This document shows, in pieces, positions 3,001 through 37,087 of a stretch of DNA of 64,000 nt. The first letter of the stretch is position 1, and each line of letters starts with the position of its first letter. The stretch covers positions 1,879-65,878 of the forward strand of contig JAQICC010000262.1 of assembly GCA_027858735.1 (NCBI GenBank). Reading direction: 5' to 3'. Made by a program: the position numbers and the translations under genes. The notes beneath the pieces were generated by a model. It saw nothing but the letters and a program-made list of their open reading frames with translations. It did not search any database and was not told where the DNA came from. The DNA comes from Salinivirgaceae bacterium. GTDB lineage: Bacteria; Bacteroidota; Bacteroidia; Bacteroidales; SZUA-534.

Positions 3001-6000
3001 CACAGAAATTATTGGCTTCTGAGGGTGTTTTAATGCTGTTAGAAGTAACCAACTCTCCAGTTTACCTTGATTTTATTTTTGGTATGACTGAAGGATGGTG
3101 GTTGTTCGAAGATCTTGATATCAGAACCGAGCATGCTACAATGGCTCCTGAGAAATGGAAATCGGTGCTTGAGAACAATGGATACAGCGATGTAGCTTGC
3201 TACAGCGATTATCCTAAAAATGACATTTCTTGTCAAACTGTAATCATGGCTCGTGCCGAAAAGTTAGACCTCGAAGCAATTAAAAGCGACGATGACGCCA
3301 AATTAGCTAAAGGTAACTGGCTTGTATTTGCCGATAATAATGGGGTGTCTGACAAGGTAATTGATCAACTGAGTGCATTAAACAAAACCTGCACGACCGT
3401 TAAAATTGGTGATGGCTTTAAAGAAACAGCAGCAGGTAAATTTACCGTTGATGCGCTTTCGCAAGACGATACCTCTAAGGTTTTAGACTTTGCCAATAAA
3501 CAAGAAAACTTCGAAGGCATCATTTATGCCTGGGGACTAGATCTTTTGGATGATGCAAAGCTTTCTGCAGAATCAATAGAGCAAGGCGAAAGCCAGGGAA
3601 CTATCACGATGTTGAACATCATGAAGAAGTTAAATGACACCTCGTTTAAGAAGAACCCAAGTATTTGGGTGCTGCTAAGTGGTTCGCAAACTGTAGCGGG
3701 CTCACCTGAACTGCTTAATTTAAGTCAGGAAGGTCTCCGTGGGGTTAGCCGTTGTATTGTAAACGAATTTCCAAATTATATTACCTCATTGGTAGATTTC
3801 AGTTGTCCTGTGCAGGATAAAGAGATTGAAGTATTTATAGATGAACTATTTGCGAATGACCATATTGACGAATTAGCATTTCGTGGCAGAAAGCGCTATG
3901 TGAATAAACTGGAGCGAATTTCTCCTGATAACATTCAACAACGTGCCATGAAATCTGTACCTGCTGAAGGTTCGGCATATTCTGCTACTATATCGGAATA
4001 CGGTGTTCTTGATAATATTGTTCTAAGAGAGACTGAGCGAAAAGTACCTGAGGCAAACGAAGTTGAAGTTACCGTTAAAGCATCTGCATTAAACTTCCGT
4101 GACATAATGATTGCCATGGGCTTGCTTTCGGATGCAGCTGTAGAAGGCGGTTTATTTGGTAAAACATTTGGATTAGAATGCGCCGGAATTGTTAGCGCTG
4201 TTGGATCGGATGTAAAAAATCTTAAAGTTGGCGACGAGGTTATGGCAACCGCGCCATCCTGTTTGGGCGGATTTGCTTATCCATTAGGCGCTCACTGTGT
4301 GAAAAAACCAAAGAATATTAATTGGAACGAAGCGGCCAGTTTACCGGTGGTGTATACTACAGCATATTTCTCGTTAGTATATCATTGTCGCCTTCAAAAA
4401 GATGAAACTATTCTAATTCATGCCGCTGCTGGTGGTGTTGGTATTGCTGCTATTCATATTGCTAACGCGATTGGGGCTGAAGTTTATGCTACTGTAAGTA
4501 CGCAAGAGAAACGCGATTATATAATCGGACTGGGTGTAAAACCGGAGAACATCATGAACTCCAGAACACTTTCTTTTGCCGATGAAATAATGGAGAAGAC
4601 CAATGGTGTAGGTGTGGATGTTGTATTAAACTCACTTTCGGGTGAGGCCATTTTCAAATCTGTTCGTTGTTTATCGGCTTATGGTCGTTTTGTAGAGATT
4701 GGTAAAACCGATATTTATAGAAACAGCAAACTTGGGTTGCAGCCTTTCGGTAATAACCTAAGCTACTTTGGTGTAGATGTTGACCGACTATTCAAGCAGA
4801 AAGCTGAATTTGGTGGTAATCTGTTCCAGGATTCAATCGATTATTTTGTTGAGCATGGTTTCAAACCGCATCCGGTTACCGTCTTCCCAATTGCCAAACT
4901 GGCTGATGCTTTCCAATTTATGGGTGGTGCAAGACATATTGGTAAGGTTATCGTTTCTATGGAAGACAAGGTAAATGTTTTACCTCAGGAAGAGATAAAA
5001 TTTGATGCGAATGGTACCTACATGATTACAGGTGGAGCATCTGGTCTTGGACTGGGTGTTGCTAACTGGATGACAACACGCGGGTGTAAGAATCTTGTTC
5101 TATTAAGCCGTAGCGGAACCAAAACCGAGGAAGAAGCTGCAATTGTTCAGTCAATGCTTGATAAGGGTGTTAAGGTAATGTTGGCCAAAGGAAGTGTCGA
5201 TAATCAAAACGATATGGATCGCATCTTTAAAGAAATTAAAGATACAATGCCGCCACTTAAAGGTATTCAGCATGCTGCTATGGTATTGGATGATGGCAGT
5301 ATTCCAGAAATGACACAAGAGCGCTATATGAGAGTCTTTAACCCCAAAGCTGTTGGGTGTTGGATATTACATGAAGCAACAAAAAATATGGATCTGGATC
5401 ATTTTCTTTCGTATTCATCAATTTCTGCGATCTATGGTAATCCGGGTCAGGTTAGTTACGTAGGAGCAAATAGTTTTCTTGATAATTTCTCCCACTGGAG
5501 AAGAGCTCAGGGGCTGCCTGCAACCACAATAAATTGGGGTGTAATTGGCGATGTAGGTTTTGTTGCACGTATAGGAAAAGTTGGCGGAAATGTCGATGAG
5601 CTTTTATACAAGCAAGGATGGAAATCTTTTTCATTGGTACAAGCAACTAGTATATTAGAGGGGATCTTATTAAGCAATCCTATTCAACGCGTTGCAACCG
5701 ATTCCGACTGGGAAATGATTGGAGATTTCTTCCCACATAGTGCAGAATCGAGTCGATTTGCACACTTGGTAAATGAAAACCAATTAGGCGGAGGATCAAG
5801 TGCTGGTTCTGGCGATGGTGCTCTAAAAGCAAATATTCTAGAAGCAAAACCTGAGAAACAAAACGAATTATTACTAAGTCATTTGAATGATACTTTTGCC
5901 CGTGTATTAGGAACCACTGCTGATAAGTTAGATGTCAGCGAGCCTGTTACCAAGTACGGACTAGATTCACTAATGGCAAATCAGATACGTAACTGGGTAC

Positions 6001-6908
6001 AAAGCAATGTGGGTATCGATTACTCCATGATGAAGATCATGCGTGGCCCTTCAATGGAAGAAATGACTGAGCAGATTCTTGATGAAATACTTGGTGGAGC
6101 TGCAATCGATGGCATCGAGGGTGAAGTTAAGAGTGAATTAGATAAGTGGATAATTAGAATCAAGAAGGTTGAAAATCCAAGACTACGCCTGTTCTGCCTA
6201 CCCTACTTTGCGGGAGGTGCTTCCATCTTTAATACATGGCATGAGTTATTGCCAGACGATATAGAAGTTTGCGCAATTCAGTTACCTGGTCGCGAAGAAA
6301 GAGGAGACGAGAAACCCTTCGATGATGTATTTGAATTAGCATCGAAACTTACTGAAGTAATGGAGCCTCTGTTAACTACTCCTTGTGCTTTTTATGCACA
6401 CAGTTCAGGTGCTGGTGTTGCTCTTGAATTAGCGCGCTACTTACGCAAGAATCTTGATGTACATCCTACCCGATTTATGGTTGGAGGATGGAGAGCGCCA
6501 CACTTAGAAAGTCCTTTTGAATTCCTTAATGCAATTAATGAAGACGAAGTATATAAGGAGAAGAATATCCCAAACATTAAAGGTCATCTTCGTTCTTTAG
6601 AGATTCCCGATTCTATAATCGATAACGATGCTGTATTTAATGAAATGCTGCCTGCATTGCGCGCAGATATTCTTCTTGGAAAGAAATACAAGTATTACGA
6701 TGAGGAGCCTCTTAACTGTCCATTAACAGCATTCGCAGGTAAGGATGATTCAGTTTTCTCAGAAGATCAAATAAAAGAATGGAGACAGCATACTTCAAAC
6801 AAATTCAAATTTGAAGTTATACAAGGAAGTCACCTATTCTGTAGAGATAATAAGGAGGAATTATTGAAGTATGTTACGGAGGAACTATCTGATTTAATCA
6901 GCAATTAA
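1..6908 (+). CDS. Type I polyketide synthase / FAS-like megasynthase, 5'-truncated by the window edge. Domains seen: AT-DH-CMeT-(structural linker)-ER-KR-ACP-TE
   Basis: The frame of ORF 126..6908 stays open back to nt 3 (AKYLQLFLDGESV...KVVFIFSGQGPQWWGMGRQL, the AT N-terminal GQGxQxxGMG motif), so the gene starts upstream of the window. Motifs: AT GHSIGE (nt ~354) and VPFHSHHM; DH HKVQGPIVFP (HxxxGxxxxP, nt ~1275) and HPGVLDSCFQ; SAM-MT LEIGAGTGG (nt 2730); ER ALNFRD and HAAAGGVGIAAI (nt 4419); KR ITGGASGLGLG (nt ~5025) and SYVGAN; ACP GLDSLM (Ser codon 5967-5969); TE AHSSG (Ser codon 6402-6404). Confidence 0.93.
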   Translation, partial: AKYLQLFLDGESVTEIAEGRVNEKKDKVVFIFSGQGPQWWGMGRQLFENEPLFRTWIEKLDGMLAKHADWSLIEELTKDEETSRISQTHIAQPSIFAVQIALFEMWKAMGVHPKAVVGHSIGEVAAGYVSGALTLEQAVLLIFHRSRVQFKATDKGRMLAVGISHEEAKKLIAGKEDKVSVGAVNGPEMVALSGDIDVIEAIAEDLNERDIFHRILAVNVPFHSHHMEPLKEELLASLGEFKTKPSTIPFYSTVAGGIVKGEDLDPMYWFRNVREPVLFTDAISAQIEDGFDTFIELGPHPIHAIGVEGLLVDKKVKGLVIHSLRRKDNEKKIFLSSVAKLHTWGVAIDWKNFYGNDNGWVDLPRYPWQKESYWIESVEGKKTRLGGIEFGHPHLNKKTSSARENNNIVWDVILDKRTYPYLEDHKVQGPIVFPGAGHVDLVIGAAKASFGDKFEFIEDLNFDNALFLPDSGEPPLIQMDISHDSGDYFIYSKARKKDAPWTMCSNGKINHIGDTFKSIPVDFEAIKKRITIPVPVKPMHDELLESGLYLGPSFRAIKNLWRSDGNWESLSEIEVHESIRSEFHQFNIHPGVLDSCFQTVFGIFNEREDVNKKMGVYVPRHIDRIKWYNDVNSFKLFVHGRLREWTDEKAVGELWIFNEDGSLVAEFHGFHSQYLKGSRGEQGGEQDKWFYEYNWNMKSRADQELTRNPGDYLSTPTAIAPGVLETINEVKNRPEQNEYYNNYEPKQYDLTMGYICRSLKDMGMAFEIGAKADVEELIGKMAVIEEHHRLFHHMFKLLHDAGIVSGADGHFEVIKAPNFRDVTLWMDELNGQFPQFHHESTLLGRCGPEIQGVLQGTVDPIELIFPEDKWDAIVQYYIEGFAFKKYNDIASKSIAELIKNVPEDQTIRILEIGAGTGGMSQAILPMLPADRTEYVFTDLSHMFMLKAQQRFDKYPFVQYKILDIEQNPAEQGFDLNTFDIIIASDVIHATRNLSVSLGNAQKLLASEGVLMLLEVTNSPVYLDFIFGMTEGWWLFEDLDIRTEHATMAPEKWKSVLENNGYSDVACYSDYPKNDISCQTVIMARAEKLDLEAIKSDDDAKLAKGNWLVFADNNGVSDKVIDQLSALNKTCTTVKIGDGFKETAAGKFTVDALSQDDTSKVLDFANKQENFEGIIYAWGLDLLDDAKLSAESIEQGESQGTITMLNIMKKLNDTSFKKNPSIWVLLSGSQTVAGSPELLNLSQEGLRGVSRCIVNEFPNYITSLVDFSCPVQDKEIEVFIDELFANDHIDELAFRGRKRYVNKLERISPDNIQQRAMKSVPAEGSAYSATISEYGVLDNIVLRETERKVPEANEVEVTVKASALNFRDIMIAMGLLSDAAVEGGLFGKTFGLECAGIVSAVGSDVKNLKVGDEVMATAPSCLGGFAYPLGAHCVKKPKNINWNEAASLPVVYTTAYFSLVYHCRLQKDETILIHAAAGGVGIAAIHIANAIGAEVYATVSTQEKRDYIIGLGVKPENIMNSRTLSFADEIMEKTNGVGVDVVLNSLSGEAIFKSVRCLSAYGRFVEIGKTDIYRNSKLGLQPFGNNLSYFGVDVDRLFKQKAEFGGNLFQDSIDYFVEHGFKPHPVTVFPIAKLADAFQFMGGARHIGKVIVSMEDKVNVLPQEEIKFDANGTYMITGGASGLGLGVANWMTTRGCKNLVLLSRSGTKTEEEAAIVQSMLDKGVKVMLAKGSVDNQNDMDRIFKEIKDTMPPLKGIQHAAMVLDDGSIPEMTQERYMRVFNPKAVGCWILHEATKNMDLDHFLSYSSISAIYGNPGQVSYVGANSFLDNFSHWRRAQGLPATTINWGVIGDVGFVARIGKVGGNVDELLYKQGWKSFSLVQATSILEGILLSNPIQRVATDSDWEMIGDFFPHSAESSRFAHLVNENQLGGGSSAGSGDGALKANILEAKPEKQNELLLSHLNDTFARVLGTTADKLDVSEPVTKYGLDSLMANQIRNWVQSNVGIDYSMMKIMRGPSMEEMTEQILDEILGGAAIDGIEGEVKSELDKWIIRIKKVENPRLRLFCLPYFAGGASIFNTWHELLPDDIEVCAIQLPGREERGDEKPFDDVFELASKLTEVMEPLLTTPCAFYAHSSGAGVALELARYLRKNLDVHPTRFMVGGWRAPHLESPFEFLNAINEDEVYKEKNIPNIKGHLRSLEIPDSIIDNDAVFNEMLPALRADILLGKKYKYYDEEPLNCPLTAFAGKDDSVFSEDQIKEWRQHTSNKFKFEVIQGSHLFCRDNKEELLKYVTEELSDLISN

Positions 6909-27819: not shown

Positions 27820-29247
27820 ATGATAAAAGACTACCAACAAGTGTGGAATAACTGTTTACGAGTTATCAAAGACAATGTGCCTGCAATAAGTTTCAGAACC
27901 TGGTTTGAACCAATTGTGCCGTTAAAAATTGATAAAAATATTTTAACGATTCAAGTTCCAAGCCCGTTTTTTTATGAATACTTAGAAGAACAGTACATTG
28001 ATATTCTTAGGAAAACCTTGAGAACAGAAATGGGCATTGATGCCAAGCTTGAATACAGTGTTATTATGGAAAATAATGTGTATTCAAACTCAAATCCATA
28101 CACGGTTAAATTACCAACAAATGATAGAAGAGATATAAGTAATAAGCCATTGTCTTTACCCCTTGACGAACAAAAGACGATCAAAAATCCTTTTATTATT
28201 CCAGGTATACAAAAACTACATGTTGATCCACAATTAAATCCGATTAATAATTTCAATAATTTTGTTGAAGGAGAATGTAACAGACTGGCAAGATCTGCGG
28301 GTTTTGCAGTTGCAAATAATCCTGGCAAAACAGCTTTCAATCCCCTATTTTTATATGGTGCTTCTGGTTTAGGCAAATCACATCTGGCACAAGCTATTGG
28401 TATTCAGGTTAAAGAAAAATTTTCTGAGAAGGTTGTATTGTATGTAAACGGAAATAAATTCCATACACAATTTGTAGAAGCAATTTTAAATAATAACAGA
28501 AACGATTTTGTGCACTTTTACCAAATGATTGATGTTTTAATTATTGATGACGTACATGAATTTGCAGGTAAAGAAAAAACTCAAGATATATTCTTCCACA
28601 TATTCAATCATTTACACCAAAATAGCAAACAGCTCATACTAACTTCAGACAAATCACCTGTTGATTTGAAAGGAATGGAGCAAAGACTTCTTTCAAGGTT
28701 TAAATGGGGACTGTCAGCCGATTTGCAAGCTCCTGATTATGAGACGCGTATTGCCATACTTAAACAAAAAGTATATAATGATGGCTTGAATTTATCTGAT
28801 GAAGTTATAGAATATATTGCATCACATATAACTGCTAATATTCGCGAATTAGAGGGAGCCCTTATTTCGTTGTTGGCACAATCAACTCTTAACAAAAAAG
28901 AGCTGACGCTTGATTTAGCCCGACGAATGATCGATCGTTTGGTAAAAAATACAAAGCGTGAAATTTCTATTGATTATATTCAGAAGGTAGTATGCGATTA
29001 TTTCAATATGCCTCATGAGATAATTAATTCAAAAACAAGAAAAAGAGAGATTGTTCAGGCTCGTCAAATAGCTATGTTCTTTGCAAAAAGCCTTACCAAG
29101 TCGTCGTTAGCAACTATTGGTTCTCAAATTGGTGGAAAAGATCATGCTACAGTATTGCATGCTTGCAAAACTGTAAATAACCTAATTGATACCGACAAGC
29201 GGTTTAGAGGATATATTGATGAAATTGAAAAGAAATTTAAAGTTTAA
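27820..29247 (+). CDS. dnaA: Chromosomal replication initiator protein DnaA
   Basis: 475 aa. Walker A GASGLGKSHL, Walker B LIIDDVH, NIRELEGAL, and C-terminal DNA-binding KTRKREIVQARQIAMFF...IGGKDHATVLHA. Confidence 0.97.
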   Translation: MIKDYQQVWNNCLRVIKDNVPAISFRTWFEPIVPLKIDKNILTIQVPSPFFYEYLEEQYIDILRKTLRTEMGIDAKLEYSVIMENNVYSNSNPYTVKLPTNDRRDISNKPLSLPLDEQKTIKNPFIIPGIQKLHVDPQLNPINNFNNFVEGECNRLARSAGFAVANNPGKTAFNPLFLYGASGLGKSHLAQAIGIQVKEKFSEKVVLYVNGNKFHTQFVEAILNNNRNDFVHFYQMIDVLIIDDVHEFAGKEKTQDIFFHIFNHLHQNSKQLILTSDKSPVDLKGMEQRLLSRFKWGLSADLQAPDYETRIAILKQKVYNDGLNLSDEVIEYIASHITANIRELEGALISLLAQSTLNKKELTLDLARRMIDRLVKNTKREISIDYIQKVVCDYFNMPHEIINSKTRKREIVQARQIAMFFAKSLTKSSLATIGSQIGGKDHATVLHACKTVNNLIDTDKRFRGYIDEIEKKFKV

Positions 29248-29451: not shown

Positions 29452-31575
29452 ATGAAAGCTTTACTCTCAATTATTATTTCAGTATTTTTTGTTTTAGTAT
29501 TAATAAGCACATCATTGGCTCAACAATCTCCAGTTAAGCGTTCAAACAATAAAGTTGAACTTAATGGTAAAGCCTATTACATTCACATAGTACGCAAGGG
29601 TGAAACGCTTTATGGTATTAGTGAGGCATATAAAACAAGTGTGGATACCATTAAAAAAGATAACTTACATCTTTCGAACGATCTTAAGGTTAACCAATAC
29701 CTTAAAATTGGGTTCAAAAAGCAAGAAGAAAGTAATAAAAATCAATTTGTATATCATGAAGTGAAAAAGGGTGATACACCCTACAATGTTTCGGTACGTT
29801 ATGGTGTTACCATTAATGATTTATATAAAGTGAACCCTACAGCAAAAATGGGCATTGGTATTGGTGAGATTCTGAAAATACCTTTAAAGGCACATGAAAA
29901 TTTACAATTGAACGATACTATACCAGAAACTCAAAAAGAAATAAATAGTTATTTAGTACATACAGTGCAAAAAAGGGAAACCATTTATGGAATAGCTGCA
30001 AGTTTCAAAACAACACAAGAAGAAATTAAAAAATTAAACCCGCAATTAATAGATAAGCCCTTGCAGATTGGTGATGAGTTGAAAATTCCAGGGGGGCTAC
30101 TTGAAAAAGCGAATGCCGACTCCGAATTTTACTTTCATAAAGTAAAAAAACAAGAGACTATATATAAAATTACCCGCCAATATCAAATTAAAGAGAGGCA
30201 GTTATATAAGTTAAATTCTGGCTTAAAAGACCGTGCTATTATGATTGGTGAATTGGTGAAAATTCCAAAAAATACGATTTCGGATTCAATATTTTTACAA
30301 GATAAACCTACTGTTGATAGTATATATACAGAGCCGCAAAATGATCAGTTTGTGCTTTGGACAGATTCATTGATTTTACCACCCTGCCCTATAGTTGGAG
30401 TCGATACCATAACTAAATATAAAGTAGCATTTTTTCTACCTTTTTATTTAAACATAAACGATACACTTGGAAAGTATGTAGATATAGTTGTTCGAGATGA
30501 AGATGGACATGAACATATTGAAACTGTTCAACGAACAGGAAATGTAGAAGATAAAATATATCCTAGATCGAAACTTTTCATCAACTTTTATCAAGGAGCA
30601 TTGCTCGCGCTTAAAAATTTAAAAGACATGGGTGTTTCTATTGATATTCATGTATTTGACACGCAGAATGATAGTTTGCATCTTTCACAAATATTAAAAG
30701 CCAGCAAATTTGAAAACTTTGATTTATTTATAGGGCCTGTATTTGGTGATATGTTAAAAATTGTGGGCGATTATGCCTGGGAACATCACATAAATATAGT
30801 TTCGCCACTTTCAAACGATAATGAATTTATAGACCATAATCCGTATGCATTTCAAGTAATTCCCCCACTTGAAGTGCAAATGCAACATGCTTCTGATTAT
30901 TTAAATAGTATTGACACTAAGAATTATATAGTAATTCATGATGGCAAAAATTTGGATCAAGAATATATTTCTCAATTCAAAAGACAATTATTTGCTCAAA
31001 TGAACAATGAAAACTTTGATCAGATAAAATATAACGAAGTATTGTATTACGATGCCCGTGATAGTGTTTTAAAGGAGGTTTTTACTAAAGGTATGGAAAA
31101 CATTGTAATAGTACCTTCAAGTAATCAGGCATTTGTTACCGATATACTGGGCAAATTAAATGGTTATTCATACGAATACAATATTAAAATATTTGGACAA
31201 CCATTATGGTCGCGTTTTGAAAATATAGAACTCGATAATTTTCATAATACAAATACGCATATTTTTTCGAATTCATTTATCGATTATAGTCAAGCTAATG
31301 TTTCAAGCTTTGTACAATCATATCGCTATCACTTTAAAGGTGAACCTAATAAATATGCATTTCAGGGATATGATATTACAAAATACTTTTGCCTGGCGTT
31401 AAATAAATATGGTCGCGATTTTAGGAAATGTATTCATATGCATGATCCTGAATTATTGCAAACAAGTTATCGTTTTGTTCCATTTTCCGATCAAGGGGGA
31501 TATCAGAACACTTCAATTTTTATTTTAGAATATTCAAAAAGTAATAGGCTAAATAAAGTTGCCCAATTTCCTTAG
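29452..31575 (+). CDS. LysM-repeat protein fused to a periplasmic-binding-protein (type 1)-like domain
   Basis: Signal peptide, then four LysM-like units (YHIVRKGETLYGISEAY, YHEVKKGDTPYNVSVRY, VHTVQKRETIYGIAASF, FHKVKKQETIYKITRQY), followed by a ~400-aa PBP-like C-terminal region. Confidence 0.8.
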   Translation: MKALLSIIISVFFVLVLISTSLAQQSPVKRSNNKVELNGKAYYIHIVRKGETLYGISEAYKTSVDTIKKDNLHLSNDLKVNQYLKIGFKKQEESNKNQFVYHEVKKGDTPYNVSVRYGVTINDLYKVNPTAKMGIGIGEILKIPLKAHENLQLNDTIPETQKEINSYLVHTVQKRETIYGIAASFKTTQEEIKKLNPQLIDKPLQIGDELKIPGGLLEKANADSEFYFHKVKKQETIYKITRQYQIKERQLYKLNSGLKDRAIMIGELVKIPKNTISDSIFLQDKPTVDSIYTEPQNDQFVLWTDSLILPPCPIVGVDTITKYKVAFFLPFYLNINDTLGKYVDIVVRDEDGHEHIETVQRTGNVEDKIYPRSKLFINFYQGALLALKNLKDMGVSIDIHVFDTQNDSLHLSQILKASKFENFDLFIGPVFGDMLKIVGDYAWEHHINIVSPLSNDNEFIDHNPYAFQVIPPLEVQMQHASDYLNSIDTKNYIVIHDGKNLDQEYISQFKRQLFAQMNNENFDQIKYNEVLYYDARDSVLKEVFTKGMENIVIVPSSNQAFVTDILGKLNGYSYEYNIKIFGQPLWSRFENIELDNFHNTNTHIFSNSFIDYSQANVSSFVQSYRYHFKGEPNKYAFQGYDITKYFCLALNKYGRDFRKCIHMHDPELLQTSYRFVPFSDQGGYQNTSIFILEYSKSNRLNKVAQFP

Positions 31576-32028
31576 CGAAATAACAACTATAAAAAAGCAG
31601 AGCAGTCAAGTTAATATTCGCCTTTAATACCTGTTGTACAAATAGCTTCTGCATAAACATCACAAAATAAGCGATTTAAGAAATTTTGAAAATAGAAATA
31701 CAATGTGATATGTTCTATTTACACTAAAAACTCAAACCTATTAAAGCATCATAATACATTGATTAAATGCGTTTTGCATTAAAATTACCTGCCTGAGAAT
31801 TGAATATTTTTTACAACGTGTACTATAATGAGAAAATATAAAGGAAATTAAGTGGTTCAAGACAAAATCAAATGTTTCATATATGGGATAGTAATGAAAC
31901 TATTAATGAACAAATAACTTAAAAGCTGAATGGTGAAGATTTTAGAGGCAATTTATCAAACCCAGACAGGATTACATATGTAATCTAAGCAAATATACAA
32001 ATGTAACGCACCGAAATGACCATAAAAT

Positions 32029-33063
32029 TTACTTTTGTAACTTTGCAATTTCCTTATTTATATTTCTTGCTATTGCTGGTCCTTCGTAAATAAAACCTGT
32101 ATATACTTGCACTAATGTTGCTCCAGCATTTATTTTATCTAAGGCATCCTGAGCTGTAAATATGCCTCCAACGCCTATAATTGGGAGTTTCCCAGAGGTT
32201 TTTTCAGAAATATATTTTATAATATCTGTTGATCTATCCTTAATTGGTTTTCCACTAAGTCCGCCATTTCCAATACCTTCCACTATTGATGATTCAGTAG
32301 TTAAATCATCTCGAGATGTTGTTGTATTTGTGGCAATTACTCCATCAATGTTACAACGTTTTATAACATCGAGTGTTTCATTAATTTGGTGAACATTCAA
32401 ATCAGGAGAAATTTTAAGCAGGATCGGTTTATACGGTGAAAATTCAGTGCGTTTGTCATTAAGTGTTTTCAAAATAAGCTCCAGCGATTCTTGGTCTTGG
32501 AGTTTATGTAGGTCAGTAACGTTAGGACAACTAACGTTCACTACAATATAGTCAACCACATTATATAAGCCCGTAAAACAGGCAAGGTAATCACTTAGTG
32601 CATCTTCATTTTTGGTTAGGGTGTTTTTGCCAATATTACCTCCAATAATTAGGTTTTTATTTCGTTTTCGAAGTTTAATAATAGCACTTTCAAGCCCCTT
32701 ATTATTAAAACCCATACGATTTATTAAAGCGTCATCGTTTATTAAGCGAAAAGAGCGTGGTTTTGCGTTGCCAGACTGAGGCTTTGGTGTAACCGTTCCA
32801 ATTTCTATGTGCCCAAATCCAAGTGAACCTAACATACTGTATACTTCAGCATTTTTATCAAGCCCGGCAGCTACTCCAACCTTATTTGGAAATTTAAGTC
32901 CAAACACTTCTGTTTTCATATGTAAACTACTAGGGTGAAATGCCCATTTAAATACTGGCTTAAGGCCAAAGGTTTGTCCACATTTTAAAGCCCTAAATAC
33001 TACCTTATGGGCTGTTTCGGGCAACATTTTGAATAGAATGGGGCGGATAAAGAGTTTATACAT
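32029..33063 (-). CDS. pyrD: Dihydroorotate dehydrogenase (quinone), class 2
   Basis: MYKLFIRPILFKMLPETAH, GFGHIEIGTVTP, NVSCPN, GVIATNTT, GGLSG and IGVGGI motifs. I prefer the ATG at 33063 over the TTG at 33087 used by the track. Confidence 0.93.
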   Translation of the reverse strand: MYKLFIRPILFKMLPETAHKVVFRALKCGQTFGLKPVFKWAFHPSSLHMKTEVFGLKFPNKVGVAAGLDKNAEVYSMLGSLGFGHIEIGTVTPKPQSGNAKPRSFRLINDDALINRMGFNNKGLESAIIKLRKRNKNLIIGGNIGKNTLTKNEDALSDYLACFTGLYNVVDYIVVNVSCPNVTDLHKLQDQESLELILKTLNDKRTEFSPYKPILLKISPDLNVHQINETLDVIKRCNIDGVIATNTTTSRDDLTTESSIVEGIGNGGLSGKPIKDRSTDIIKYISEKTSGKLPIIGVGGIFTAQDALDKINAGATLVQVYTGFIYEGPAIARNINKEIAKLQK

Positions 33064-34529
33064 TGTTTTTGCTGCAAATATATGCAAAATGTCGAATTTA
33101 TTTCATTTGAATAAAGTATTAATATGAAGTTTTTATGTATTCATGTAATTCTAGGGCACTATATTCATTTCCGAAAGAATTTAATGATTGATTATCGCTA
33201 CGATTACATATGTAAACTGTAGATTGATATGATTTATTGTTAATGCAATGGGTAGTTGGTCTTCCCATAAAACGACCTAAGGCAATTAATTAAATGTTTA
33301 ACTTTAAGGAGATAAAAAACGATAATAACCACAGCATGCTTGCTTGCTTGCCTGGAATAAAAACCACAACCCATCCAGATTATTTAGTGATGGGTTTTAG
33401 ATGATTATTACTAGGCATATTAAACTCAGTCAAGTCATTAGTTTTTTTTTGTTCAAAAGCATAGCCTGAATAATTCATAAAATTTGACAAAAAGCACATA
33501 TCTTTTTCATTATCTACACCTTATAATTTTCAAGTGTTAAAAATAGTTTGTCAATTTTACTAAAGTGCATTTATTTCAGCACATCTACTTCCTTGCAATC
33601 CCTTTGAAGTCGGGAACTACATCGACAGGTATTGCAAGTTGTATCTGCACTAAACTAAACGCATGAATTAATCAGCATAGAGATAAAATATATTATCCGT
33701 TTTTTAAAACAACCCAATAGCAATCTTATAAATATGGGTTAACTCTTACTTAATTCAATTGATCGGAATCATTATTCTTGCCGCAGCATAAATCGGGTTT
33801 ATAAGCTAACAGGCTTTCCGTTTTATAACTTCACTATAAAACATTGAATAAAGACGAATAACCTCAGTGTGATATAAAATTAGGGCAACTTAAATCTGCC
33901 TCTAAACTGTTTTGAAAGGTGTATAAGACAAGAACGTACTTTCCGCCACAACTAGTAAAGCGTTCTTGAATTAGTATTGCATTTGTTTAAGATTTTTTCT
34001 TTAGGAAAGGCAAAATTTGCAAGCATAGCCGTAGTTACGGTTAATAATTTCAACGTAGCATAAATGAGTAATAAATGGTAAACTTTTCGATTAAATGTGG
34101 TAAGGTTGCTAATTAATATATACCGTTAATTTATGAGCGCTTTACTAGATTAAATATATAGCTAGAGCAGTTAATCATAATTCTACAAGTAGCTTAAAAC
34201 AGTCTATATAAGCTTTCATAGCTTATCTCCATGGGGCTGAGCATAAAAACACCAGTTTTTCCTGACCTAAAAGATGCAAACAATAGATTTTTAGTGATGC
34301 GTAATGAGCTAAAACGCTTGATACTGAAATTAAGTCAATAACAAACATTATTAAGCATTGTGTATCTCGCTATATATTAGCAGTGTGAAAATACAGCGAA
34401 CAAGTAATAAAAGTACAAGGCAAGTGTTAAAATATGCGATAATTATTAGTTCATTGGATAGTAACAAGCTTAATTCAGCCTAGCCTAATTGTTTATCCTA
34501 TAAAGTACGACTTCTACGTTATGTTCGTC

Positions 34530-34576
34530 AAAAAAACAATCACCCCGTTGTTTCAATCGGGATGATTGGTTTTTTT
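34530..34576. terminator. Bidirectional intrinsic terminator (A7-stem-loop-T7)
   Basis: Stem CAATCACCCCG (34537-34547) / CGGGATGATTG (34558-34568), 10 of 11 pairs, with a 10-nt loop. It is flanked by A7 (34530-34536) and T7 (34570-76). It lies ~185 nt downstream of the XRE gene stop on the minus strand and closes the ORF-free tract on the plus strand. Confidence 0.8.
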
Positions 34577-34759
34577 CTGACTTTCACAAGCACTACCAGA
34601 TTGATTTAGTCAGACTGGCCTGAATTCGAACTTCATATTCAAACACCTGATTTTATTGACGGTATCTAGTTAGAAAAAGAAGGGAATAAATAAATATTTA
34701 CAAATGTAAATTTATAAAAAAGGTATCCTAAGCTAGAAGACTCTAAAAATACCTTTGGC

Positions 34760-35266
34760 TTATACCTCATCAGTATTGTTTGGTTTATATTCTGAAAAAG
34801 TTTTATCGCTATAAAAAATTACAATTTTCGAAACCTTTTTAGCTGGTAATTCATTATTTAAAGGAGGGGGATCTGTAAAGTTATCTTTATATTTTGGTGG
34901 ATCCTCCTCTTGTATTTCAGCAGCTTTAATTACATCCTTAAGCTCACCAGCAACATTATTTAGTTCATTATGCTTGTTTTGGGCAGTGTTTAAAGCGCTA
35001 TCTCCACTTGGCTCATTCTCGATAGCATCATAAATATTTGTTTGTATAGGAACTTTATATATGTCACCAACCCCTGTTATTAGCCATTCCGAATTGTATT
35101 TCGGATAGCTTATGAGTGTCTTTTGAAGAAAATCGAGACTTGGTTTATTTCTGCCCGATATTATATGTGATATACTAGAGCGTTGAACTCCAATAGAATC
35201 AGCAAATGCAGCGGATGTTAAGCCTTCAGAAGATATTATTCGAGCTAACCTATTTTTAATTTCCAT
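34760..35266 (-). CDS. XRE-family helix-turn-helix transcriptional regulator
   Basis: 168 aa. The N-terminal HTH reads LTSAAFADSIGVQRSSISHIISGRNKPSLDFLQK...NSEWLITGVGDIY. It has a low-complexity, P-rich middle and a C-terminal KIVIFYSDKTFSEY. Confidence 0.85.
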   Translation of the reverse strand: MEIKNRLARIISSEGLTSAAFADSIGVQRSSISHIISGRNKPSLDFLQKTLISYPKYNSEWLITGVGDIYKVPIQTNIYDAIENEPSGDSALNTAQNKHNELNNVAGELKDVIKAAEIQEEDPPKYKDNFTDPPPLNNELPAKKVSKIVIFYSDKTFSEYKPNNTDEV

Positions 35267-35280
35267 TAATTATCTATTTG

Positions 35281-35438
35281 TTACAAATGTAATAATAATA
35301 ATTTACATATGGAATCACAAATGTAATTTTCATTTCGACAGTCACGTGACATATGTAATTTCCTCAGCTACGATATGGTTCTATTTTTACTTCATGTCGA
35401 ACGTGTAATTAGCTAGATAACAGCTTTGTATGTGTAAT
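35281..35438. promoter_or_regulatory. Array of six same-orientation TnACAWATGTAAT repeats upstream of the XRE gene (candidate operators and/or promoters)
   Basis: The six units are TTACAAATGTAAT (35281), TTACATATGGAAT (35303), CACAAATGTAAT (35316), ACATATGTAAT (35349, abutting the palindrome GTCACGTGAC at 35341-35350), AACGTGTAAT (35400) and TATGTGTAAT (35429). On the minus strand, units 1 and 3 contain TACATTTG, which matches the Bacteroidota -7 consensus TAnnTTTG. The unit 1 box ends 17 nt before the ATG at 35266. Confidence 0.5.
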
Positions 35439-35929
35439 ATAATCGCATTTTTACGAAAAAAATCATAAAATTGCATAAAATACTTAGATTAAAGGTTTAA
35501 TTCAACTTCGTTAAGTGCTGACATTGTGACTTATAGCCTCTGTACATTATCCTGTTTACATATGCAAATGTAGAGCATTTTCAGCATTTCTGCTGGCTGT
35601 TTTGTGTCTAAATAATTGTTTGATTATGCTTTTATTCTAGAAATCTAAAATTATCTGATTTATTAGTTCTCCATATAAAAAACAGATTTTAGCCCCCACT
35701 CTTTATTATGATGAATTTTTAGTTGAACCCGAAAGTTTGTTATGGAAGACTTATTTTGGAAGAGATATTTGCCGGGTATGATATGCAAAATAAATTATAT
35801 TCAATTCTCAGGGGCTTAAAAATAGGTGTCACACGTCGTTAATTACCATACTAACAGCATATTATAGTGTTACTTTGGCTATATATGAGAGCTGAAAATT
35901 AAGAGGAAATAGAAAAAACATAGCTAAAA

Positions 35930-37087
35930 TTACAAATTTCTAAGCTTTTGTCCTGTTTTCAATACCAAGCATAATTCTTCGGCCGATTTTTGTAACCATA
36001 TAGCAGCCTTAGAAATTGAATTTTGCAAGGTCTCTGGTTTTCTGGAAATTGGCACTATTGCCGAAATTCCATTTTCGTATAAGATGGTTGTATTTTCTGT
36101 GGCATGTCCTGTAAAAACAAATACTGGTTTAGCATACGTTTGAGCTATCCTACCTATACCAACTGGTGTTTTTCCAGATGTAGTTTGTCCATCTACTTTT
36201 CCTTCAGCAGTAATTATAATATCGCAGCCTTTAATCTTTTCCAGTAAACCTATAAGATCAACAATTGTATCAAGCCCTGAACGAATTTCAGCATTTAAAA
36301 AGGCATGAAGTCCTGCTCCTAAGCCACCTGCAGCCCCGGCCCCTTGCATTTGCAAGACATCAATATTCATACATTCCTTAATCACCGAAGCTAGCCTAAA
36401 TAGATTTTTATCAAGTTTTTGAACCATTTGATTATCAGCTCCCTTTTGAGGCCCATATATTACTGAAGCACCCAATGAACCTGTCAAAGGTGAAACCACG
36501 TCAGTAGCAGCTATGATTTTAGTGTCTTTTAGTCTACTATCAATAGTTGAGATATCAATTGAGGTTAAGTTTGCTAAACTTCCGCCTCCCTCTCCAATAT
36601 CTTGCCCGTTATTATCCAGAAATTTTATACCCAAAGCCATTGCCATGCCTAATCCGCCATCGTTGGTCGCACTGCCACCTATACCAATAACCAACTTTTT
36701 ACACTTATAATTAAGTGCTTCCTTAATAAGTTGCCCGGTTCCATAAGTTGATGTTATCCATGGATTTCGTTCTTCCGTAGTAAGTTTTTCTATTCCACTC
36801 GCTGCAGTCATTTCAATTATGGCCGTATTTCCATTTTCAATTAAACCGAAAAAACCGTCTGTTTCTCTACCGATTGGATCTTGAACTTTAAGTTTAACAA
36901 TTTTTCCGCCTACAGCCGAAACTATACTTTCCACAGTGCCTTCACCTCCATCAGCCATTGGAATAACTTCAACATTAGCATTTTTAAAAACGTTACTAAT
37001 GCCTTTTTTTATATTCAAGCCAACCTCACTTGCACTCATGCAATCTTTAAATGAATCGGGCACAATTAAAAACGAAAGTTTGCACAT
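35930..37087 (-). CDS. Glycerate kinase
   Basis: 385 aa. IVPDSFKDCMSA, PMADGGEGT, GGSATNDGGLGM and YGPQKGA are glycerate kinase (GlxK/GarK family) signatures. Confidence 0.88.
   Translation of the reverse strand: MCKLSFLIVPDSFKDCMSASEVGLNIKKGISNVFKNANVEVIPMADGGEGTVESIVSAVGGKIVKLKVQDPIGRETDGFFGLIENGNTAIIEMTAASGIEKLTTEERNPWITSTYGTGQLIKEALNYKCKKLVIGIGGSATNDGGLGMAMALGIKFLDNNGQDIGEGGGSLANLTSIDISTIDSRLKDTKIIAATDVVSPLTGSLGASVIYGPQKGADNQMVQKLDKNLFRLASVIKECMNIDVLQMQGAGAAGGLGAGLHAFLNAEIRSGLDTIVDLIGLLEKIKGCDIIITAEGKVDGQTTSGKTPVGIGRIAQTYAKPVFVFTGHATENTTILYENGISAIVPISRKPETLQNSISKAAIWLQKSAEELCLVLKTGQKLRNL

Follow-up and report, generated by a model that had tools for sequence, protein, structure and literature searches.

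What reads the short repeats that crowd the DNA around a small regulator gene in a metagenome-assembled genome of Salinivirgaceae (Bacteroidota)? We analysed a 64-kb stretch of this genome, referred to here as the window, in which an XRE-family gene encoding a 168-aa helix-turn-helix (HTH) protein (34760-35266, minus strand, ATG at 35266) is followed by pyrD, the gene for a class-2 dihydroorotate dehydrogenase (DHODH). The initial annotation had noted an iteron-like array of repeats directly upstream of the regulator gene and further copies around pyrD, and had proposed that they are operators of the adjacent protein or, as a competing explanation, promoters. We found that the repeats are members of a family of 12-bp palindromes, TTACA-NN-TGTAA, that is confined to this locus and conserved beside orthologous regulator genes. 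We consider it likely that they are the operators of a dimeric XRE repressor of the 434/lambda type encoded by 34760-35266.

A palindromic site family confined to one locus

A weight matrix for the 12-bp palindrome was made from the upstream sites of orthologous genes alone, with the window left out. Applied to the 64-kb window, it returned 11 sites scoring 12.5-18.7 bits, all of them within 31972-35567, and every remaining match in the window scored 10.1 bits or less. The pattern ACAWATGTAA was found 10 times in the window where 0.9 matches are expected, and nine of the ten lie in 31972-35358; the strong local enrichment claimed by the initial annotation is thus confirmed. The exact sequence TTACANNTGTAA occurs four times in the window (0.2 expected), and 15 times when up to one mismatch is allowed (6.05 expected), with 11 of the 15 in 31972-35567. 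A looser search, with a 13-mer and two mismatches, gave no window-wide enrichment (45 matches, 40.3 expected). Therefore, the signal resides in the strict palindrome.

Four sites form an array in front of the regulator gene. The promoter-proximal operator O1, TTACATTTGTAA on the gene strand (35281-35292, minus, 16.3 bits), holds a -7 box, TACATTTG (35284-35291, minus), whose TTTG lies 17 nt from the ATG at 35266. O2, TTACATATGGAA on the plus strand (35303-35314, 13.8 bits), is 22 nt centre to centre from O1, a spacing that belongs to the 22-25 nt class of the orthologs described below. O3, TTACATTTGTGA on the gene strand (35315-35326, minus, 14.5 bits), abuts O2 with centres 12 nt apart, for which the orthologs show a 12-13 nt class too, and carries a second -7-type box, TACATTTG at 35318-35325 (minus). 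O4, TGACATATGTAA on the plus strand (35347-35358, 12.5 bits), follows at 32 nt centre to centre from O3, at the edge of the 33-35 nt ortholog class. This array had been described as six units in the same orientation, spaced by roughly whole helical turns. The four units at 35281, 35303, 35315 and 35347 are real palindromes, but the last two, whose ends are at 35409 and 35438, reach no more than -1.0 and 3.0 bits and have only the GTAAT half in common with real sites. The spacings of 22, 12 and 32 nt stand, and they fit or border the phasing classes of the orthologs; those of 50 and 29 nt involve non-sites, and the case for whole helical turns is lost for them. Orientation has little meaning for palindromic units, in which the central dinucleotide alone is directional.

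The other sites are found on both sides of this array. About 290 nt before the HTH start, a distal upstream operator (35556-35567, 13.6 bits) is overlapped by a -7-type box, TACATTTG (35565-35572, minus), and aligns with distal sites in close relatives; it makes up the first half of a palindromic copy that had been placed at 35555-35574, the rest of which is not a site. A perfect operator, TTACATTTGTAA on the minus strand (34698-34709, minus, 18.7 bits), is located 51 nt past the HTH stop codon. It contains a -7 box, TACATTTG (34701-34708, minus), directed into a tract free of open reading frames (ORFs), and an analogous promoter-type site is present in the long HTH-pyrD spacer of L082, one of the loci compared. 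The operator TTACATATGTAA (33204-33215, 18.7 bits) lies 141 nt upstream of the probable pyrD start; in several orthologs, sites occur about 115-180 nt upstream of pyrD, within the 3' part of the HTH gene. Within pyrD itself, a site-like 12-mer (32914-32925, 14.4 bits) lies 138 nt past the ATG, at codons S-L-H-M-K-T, and could be functional or a by-product of conserved codons. A site stands at the same +138 position in L081, L082 and L084.

The end of pyrD carries a three-site 3' array. The last TAA of site 1, TTACAAAAGTAA on the gene strand (32029-32040, 14.7 bits), is the pyrD stop codon. Site 2, TTACATTTGTAT on the gene strand (31995-32006, 13.4 bits), is 34 nt centre to centre from site 1 and aligns with 3' sites of L081 and L082. 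Site 3 (31972-31983, 18.0 bits), 23 nt centre to centre from site 2, is the core of a perfect 16-nt palindrome, GATTACATATGTAATC, and aligns with ATTACATATGTAAT in L081. The outlying copies that had been annotated at 31972, 31995, 33204, 34698 and 35556 were all borne out, with scores of 13.4-18.7 bits, and to these are added the site on the pyrD stop codon (32029-32040) and the one inside pyrD (32914-32925), which had not been listed. The bracketing of pyrD by such copies, also pointed out at the outset, is a feature conserved in relatives.

Conservation beside orthologous regulator genes

When one genome was scanned for each species, the XRE protein proved to have at least 576 relatives. Our comparison set comprised 80 loci from Bacteroidales, Marinilabiliales and Flavobacteriales at 32-44% identity. 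Nearly all of the 80 have two to four copies of TTACA-NN-TGTAA directly upstream of the regulator gene. The 722 kb of ortholog loci contain 428 matches, with 185 in the interval -250 to 0 and 124 in -750 to -250 relative to the gene start; flanking sequence has about 1-2 matches per 250-nt bin with all loci summed, which makes the enrichment in -250 to 0 about 100-fold. When start codons were anchored on the conserved GVQRS motif, at least one site was present in -330 to 0 in all 79 loci with a clear start (range 1-6, mode three). Conservation upstream of orthologous HTH genes, a check suggested by the initial annotation, is borne out across Bacteroidota.

The spacing of adjacent sites in the orthologs peaks at 24 and 23 nt (35 and 16 cases), at 34 and 33 nt (19 and 8) and at 13 nt (6), so that the classes are about 10.5 nt, or one helical turn, apart. 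Those in the window are within these classes or at their edge: 22, 12 and 32 nt in the promoter array, 34 and 23 nt in the 3' array. A strict triple with two consecutive spacings of 22-25 nt occurs in 19 of the 79 loci; the promoter array of the window has four sites and no such triple. The half-sites TTACA and TGTAA are each 82-96% conserved among the orthologs. At the proximal site, TT is the central dinucleotide in 72 of 110 cases. The resulting sequence, TTACATTTGTAA, includes the Bacteroidota -7 box TAnnTTTG, whose TTTG is usually 15-22 nt ahead of the ATG; in distal sites the central dinucleotide is mostly AA or AT. The relatives closest to the window (about 55% identity) share its positions, namely the distal site, the proximal array, the +138 pyrD site and an array of two to three sites starting at the pyrD stop.

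As an independent test, metagenome contigs were scanned blind with the tandem pattern TTACANNTGTAA-N10-13-TTACATTTGTAA. In 90 of the 120 loci returned, a member of the XRE family lies within about 350 nt, and about nine further loci break off at the end of a contig next to an M14-peptidase gene, the divergent neighbour that the regulator has in Flavobacteriales. Where the XRE gene is present, sites of 14 bits or more are essentially all found no farther than 3 kb from it. Together, the ortholog arrays, their helical phasing and the blind scan provide strong comparative support for the suggestion that these sites are operators for the adjacent XRE protein.

The pairing of the regulator with pyrD is also widespread. 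Among 81 loci with enough downstream sequence, pyrD is the next same-strand gene after the regulator in 54; it encodes the class 2 enzyme in 36 of these and the class 1B enzyme, together with pyrK, in 18. The linkage thus outlasts a change of DHODH class, which argues for a functional tie. Sites are present at -20 to +200 of the pyrD stop in 11 of 50 loci, and six of these, L081, L082, L008, L024, L067 and L070, share with the window an identical register, in which the site is at -11 from the end of the stop codon and its TAA is the stop. Sites in this register occur with both DHODH classes. The genes after pyrD vary among loci (aminotransferase, Lnb, beta-lactamase, AsnC, HAD); the 3' array is therefore part of the HTH-pyrD unit rather than of a promoter further downstream. 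A specific downstream target of the 3' array was rejected for the same reason, the post-pyrD genes differing from locus to locus. In about 20 loci, the regulator has a GltP/DctA-like symporter gene as neighbour, and the neighbour genes (pyrD, this symporter and an M14 peptidase-like gene) suggest a pyrimidine or aspartate theme for the input signal.

A different arrangement was observed in Flavobacteriales, where the regulator is divergent from a gene for an M14 zinc-carboxypeptidase-like protein (360-390 aa) about 290 nt away, in L030 and about 35 metagenome loci (such as L119, L127, L136 and L150). The start codon of this gene lies 1-18 nt past its own tandem operator pair, and pyrD is usually not adjacent there.

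The XRE protein and its proposed mode of action

The 168-aa protein is 100% identical to an NCBI protein assigned to Salinivirgaceae. In Pfam it matches HTH_19 (32.5 bits, cut-off 30.2) and HTH_3 (30.2 bits, cut-off 23), with no S24 or CI C-terminal domain. It consists of an N-terminal five-helix HTH domain (residues 1-70), a disordered linker and a C-terminal beta-hairpin motif, KIVIFYSDKTFSEYKP; in the AlphaFold model the predicted local distance difference test score exceeds 95 over residues 1-70 and ranges from 83 to 93 in the hairpin (residues 148-160). Across the aligned family the recognition region is invariant (F21, A22, G26, V27, Q28, S30, S33, H34, G38, R39, N40, P42), the linker varies, and the C-terminal motif KIVIFYxDKTFxEYxP is conserved. 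The invariance of the DNA-contacting residues Q28, S30, S33, H34, G38, R39 and N40 parallels that of the DNA motif. The conserved hairpin is likely an oligomerisation or partner-binding element. The best Foldseek matches are the 434 repressor and Cro, DdrO, controller (C) proteins, P2 C and SinR, and a PDB sequence search with the protein returned generic XRE domains alone. A search of 2.9 million viral contigs gave one weak match, to the HTH domain only; this near absence argues that the family is chromosomal.

We propose the following scheme. XRE dimers would bind the 12-bp palindromes. O1-O4 lie within 95 nt before the XRE start codon, and a repressor on O1 would exclude RNA polymerase because O1 contains the Bacteroidota -7 element; by this occlusion the XRE gene would shut itself off, in a negative autoregulation. 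O2-O4 are at helically phased distances and would most likely be loaded cooperatively. The six further sites (35556, 34698, 33204 and the three-site 3' array) could raise the local repressor concentration, and the outlying operators probably bridge to the promoter array by DNA looping. Such looping would bring pyrD and a candidate small RNA (see below) under the control of the same repressor; pyrD is probably so controlled.

A broader reading, which we hold only tentatively and judge to have about one chance in three of being right, is that the XRE gene, the operator arrays and pyrD make up a phylum-wide regulatory cassette, in which the repressor loops the DNA to control DHODH. Phased operator clusters would then stand at both ends of the unit, the stop-codon operator would have evolved repeatedly, with class-2 and class-1B enzymes, and elsewhere a GltP/DctA-type aspartate/dicarboxylate symporter or an M14 carboxypeptidase-like gene would be controlled as well; these parts are offered with the same reserve. 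A bolder version still has the co-regulated M14 carboxypeptidase trim the conserved C-terminal tail and so inactivate the repressor. If the cassette exists, the XRE family would be a pyrimidine- or aspartate-linked transcription factor of Bacteroidota.

Several observations weigh against parts of this picture. The core TACANNTGTA is also the operator of the unrelated BlaI/MecI/CopY repressors, so the motif alone does not name its binder. The centres of the two half-sites are separated by 7 bp, a closer spacing than 434 and lambda operators have, and by our own reasoning a geometry of one dimer per palindrome is not guaranteed. No ligand-binding domain was recognised in the XRE protein by Pfam or in the AlphaFold model. 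The remaining points concern pyrD, which is not adjacent to the regulator in 27 of the 81 loci and whose conserved -7 box has no overlapping operator in the window. Regulation of pyrD would therefore have to be long-range.

The shared core raises the alternative that another regulator, a winged-helix repressor of the BlaI/MecI/CopY type or some other factor, binds the palindromes and controls HTH-pyrD from outside, with XRE recognising something else. TACA-NN-TGTA is the established operator core of that family (PMC7253601), and PMC3305447 contains TTACATATGTAA. Our metagenome scan found tandem sites before BlaI-family genes in L112, L123 and L198, with BlaI-family ORFs also in L143, L159, L173 and L204; these seven loci lack XRE, and their BlaI/MecI/CopY-family genes have tandem GATTACAnnTGTAATC sites just upstream. 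BlaI-linked sites often have the flank GATTACA...TGTAATC, which is seen in the window at 31970 and 33202. However, a BlaI-like profile matched no ORF in the window or in any XRE-carrying locus, and was met only in pattern-hit loci without the XRE gene, whereas the arrays co-localise with the XRE gene in the 79 of 79 and 90 of 120 loci described above. The XRE recognition helix is invariant, as is the motif, and BlaI-type repressors normally govern their own operon only. We therefore regard an outside binder as unlikely; rather, the XRE and BlaI families each seem to have the motif beside their own gene, with one core palindrome serving two unrelated families.

The units might also be copies of a strong Bacteroidota promoter, a -7 TAnnTTTG with neighbouring elements, that no dedicated repressor recognises. 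Five of the seven TACATTTG octamers in the window are at this locus and on the gene strand, and the proximal site of the orthologs nearly always has a -7 box at a promoter-like distance from the ATG. The promoter interpretation made initially holds for O1, O3, 34698, 31995 and the stretch beside 35556, which contain TACATTTG on the gene strand, but not for the sites with a central AT, which cannot be -7 boxes. The sites with a central AT or AA (35303, 35347, 33204, 31972) have no gene-strand TTTG and yet keep both half-sites, and the orthologs conserve both TTACA and TGTAA, at the 82-96% given above. TAnnTTTG boxes number 94 in the window against 104 expected and are spread everywhere without the palindrome, whereas the palindrome is confined to 3.6 kb. 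Sites sit on the pyrD stop codon although the downstream genes differ, and the 23-24 nt spacing does not match the -33/-7 offset that we would expect from Bacteroides promoters. A -7 promoter would account for part of some sites and not for the palindrome family, and as a full explanation it is very improbable. We give still less credence, indeed almost none, to an iteron set or origin-like element, or to the ends of a mobile or invertible cassette carrying HTH and pyrD. That dnaA (27820-29247) is only 4 kb off, that long AT-rich tracts lack ORFs, and that an exact 16-nt inverted repeat, CCTGAGAATTGAATAT, encloses the unit (31792 and 35797) would fit such an element, as would the genuine tandem arrays on contigs L110 and L157, in which a similar motif recurs every 22 nt. 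The units of the window are nevertheless palindromic and not direct repeats, which, with Rep and origin features not found, removes the ground for calling them iteron-like. The window has no Rep, recombinase or transposase gene and no switch in GC skew, and its DnaA boxes are at chance (24, with 23 expected), none of them clustered at the locus. In most orthologous loci dnaA is not a neighbour and the arrays persist, and the single weak HTH-only match among the viral contigs also speaks against mobility.

The tandem arrays of L110 (839-960) and L157 (1865-1986) have a 22-nt period with at least six copies of AATTACATGTGTAATC, on contigs without the regulator gene, and L175 and L184 are similar; these appear to be genuine iteron-type or satellite repeats built on the same core. 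Bacteroidetes LexA/SOS boxes were considered as well and rejected, as the published motifs, GGA-N5-TCC and CTAA-N5-TTAG, differ (PMC8565304).

The proposed XRE repressor can be compared with several known systems. It has the fold of the 434 and lambda repressors (Foldseek TM-score on target 0.82-0.86; root-mean-square deviation 1.6 A to 434 repressor and Cro), and shares with these systems palindromic operators, one of them over the promoter, with extra clusters hundreds to thousands of bp away. The norm of three operators 23-24 nt apart centre to centre in the orthologs is likewise similar: in lambda, OR1, OR2 and OR3 are separated by 24 and 23 bp centre to centre, and OL and OR interact by long-range looping. 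Unlike the phage genes, the XRE gene is chromosomal, phylum-wide and almost absent from viral contigs; its product lacks an S24 peptidase or CI-type domain and has only a 20-residue beta-hairpin after the disordered linker; and its operators are 12 bp long with half-sites 7 bp apart and are linked to a metabolic gene, pyrD. DdrO of Deinococcus, an autoregulated XRE repressor that binds a palindrome and controls a radiation/desiccation regulon, is among the best structural matches (6jq1, 6rnz; 26-28% identity), but its RDRM motif differs from the motif found here. The Flavobacteriales arrangement, with the regulator divergent from an M14 zinc-peptidase-like gene bearing the same operators, resembles the metallopeptidase-controlled DdrO/ImmR type, except that the peptidase is of the M14 carboxypeptidase type, not COG2856 IrrE/ImmA, and is absent from the window.

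Operators of BlaI/MecI/CopY, TACANNTGTA and RNYKACANNTGTMRNY, are often duplicated, with the proximal site occluding the promoter (PMC7253601). Their core is practically identical to ours, and all 11 window sites contain or nearly contain TACANNTGTA. The regulator here is, however, an XRE helix-turn-helix protein and not a winged-helix Penicillinase_R; no BlaI/BlaR gene is present in the window or in the XRE-carrying loci, and instead of beta-lactam or copper genes the predicted targets are pyrD and the regulator's own gene. C proteins such as C.AhdI and C.BclI are small XRE proteins of matching fold, which are reported to autoregulate through adjacent paired palindromic operators over their own promoter (PMC2632904). 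In contrast to these, no restriction-modification genes are near the XRE gene, the family has a long linker and a C-terminal motif, and there are up to 11 sites over 3.6 kb.

Autoregulated XRE repressors with multiple operators are a well-known type of system; the function of this regulator family is apparently undescribed. A literature search found no description of the XRE family, of the motif or of the XRE-pyrD pairing, in a coverage that mostly excludes subscription journals, so that this absence is not proof. We know of no pyrimidine regulator for Bacteroidota and, to our knowledge, very few transcription factors of this phylum have a known motif and regulon beyond carbohydrate use. The locus offers a defined 12-bp operator and a multi-operator architecture of a promoter-overlapping triple, a distal cluster and a pyrD stop-codon cluster, for a family present in at least 576 representative genomes and with pyrD, the GltP/DctA-like symporter and the M14 peptidase-like gene as candidate targets. 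The operator-promoter pair could serve as a compact repressible promoter for Bacteroidota genetics. Because the core motif is common to BlaI/CopY, motif scans alone can misassign the regulator.

Genes, spacers and further elements of the locus

The minus strand carries the glycerate kinase gene (35930-37087), the XRE gene, the ORF-free tract and pyrD alike. A 663-nt spacer without an ORF separates glycerate kinase from the XRE gene, and a tract of 1672 nt without an ORF of at least 50 aa (33088-34759) separates the latter from pyrD (32029-33065, minus), whose product has a DHO_dh domain (E = 1.8e-85). The listed pyrD ORF begins at a TTG at 33087. The probable true start is the ATG at 33063-33065, because a -7 box, TATATTTG, and the ATG context TATATTTGCAG(A/C)AAAA..ATG are conserved in relatives, the latter stretch being kept in L082 and L084. 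This -7 box of pyrD (33075-33082, minus) is the one without an overlapping operator. On the other side of the 3' array, dnaA (27820-29247, plus) is 4 kb away with a LysM/ANF-receptor gene (29452-31575, plus) in between, and L081 has the same synteny. Rfam gave a single tRNA at gathering level for the whole window and no significant match in 31600-36000, with E values up to 5. A defence-system or phage origin was rejected, as PADLOC gave generic HTH matches only and the viral contigs one weak match.

The HTH-pyrD spacer varies in length, from 70 nt (L081 and L084) and about 670 nt (L082) to the 1672 nt of the window, and these spacers have no mutual similarity. The 1672-nt tract has no similarity to the spacers of relatives or to the remaining window, and no Rfam match; judged by these comparisons, it is a lineage-specific insertion. 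A decayed gene was considered for it and rejected, there being no Pfam match in six frames and 37-49 stops per frame. A transcript starting just past the operator/promoter at 34698 would span about 165 nt (34530-34694, minus) and end at a hairpin with an 11-bp stem and a run of seven U. Its predicted fold has an energy of -45.6 kcal/mol (z = -4.0), and it was not found in the relatives compared. We consider 34530-34694 a candidate for a repressor-controlled small RNA or leader; it would be one instance of the control of flanking non-coding transcripts that was suggested initially.

The 16-nt inverted repeat CCTGAGAATTGAATAT, exact at 31792-31807 (plus) and 35797-35812 (minus), encloses the whole HTH-tract-pyrD unit and matches at 20 of 22 positions when extended to 22 nt. 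L084 has a related inverted pair around HTH-pyrD (3826-3839 and 6213-6226), and several distant loci have a degenerate version of it some 500-830 nt ahead of the regulator gene. This repeat may be a second protein-binding element.

Upstream of the regulator, a tblastx search for a small ORF or RNA conserved in the stretch that separates the distal from the proximal array matched neighbouring genes only. Nineteen of 60 loci, but not the window, share a composite element, (T)ATCAGTTAnTTATA...N...T(T/A)AAAGTA, at some 150-580 nt before the regulator gene; its partial conserved form is CAGT-N~25-TAAAGTA. It is placed between the distal and proximal arrays (L017, L035, L009, L044, L077 and others) and loosely resembles an IHF-type site. 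In three Bacteroidales loci, the distal operator cluster is closely preceded by the RNase P RNA gene (L004, 3835-4236; L010, 3716-4093; L012, 3452-3848).

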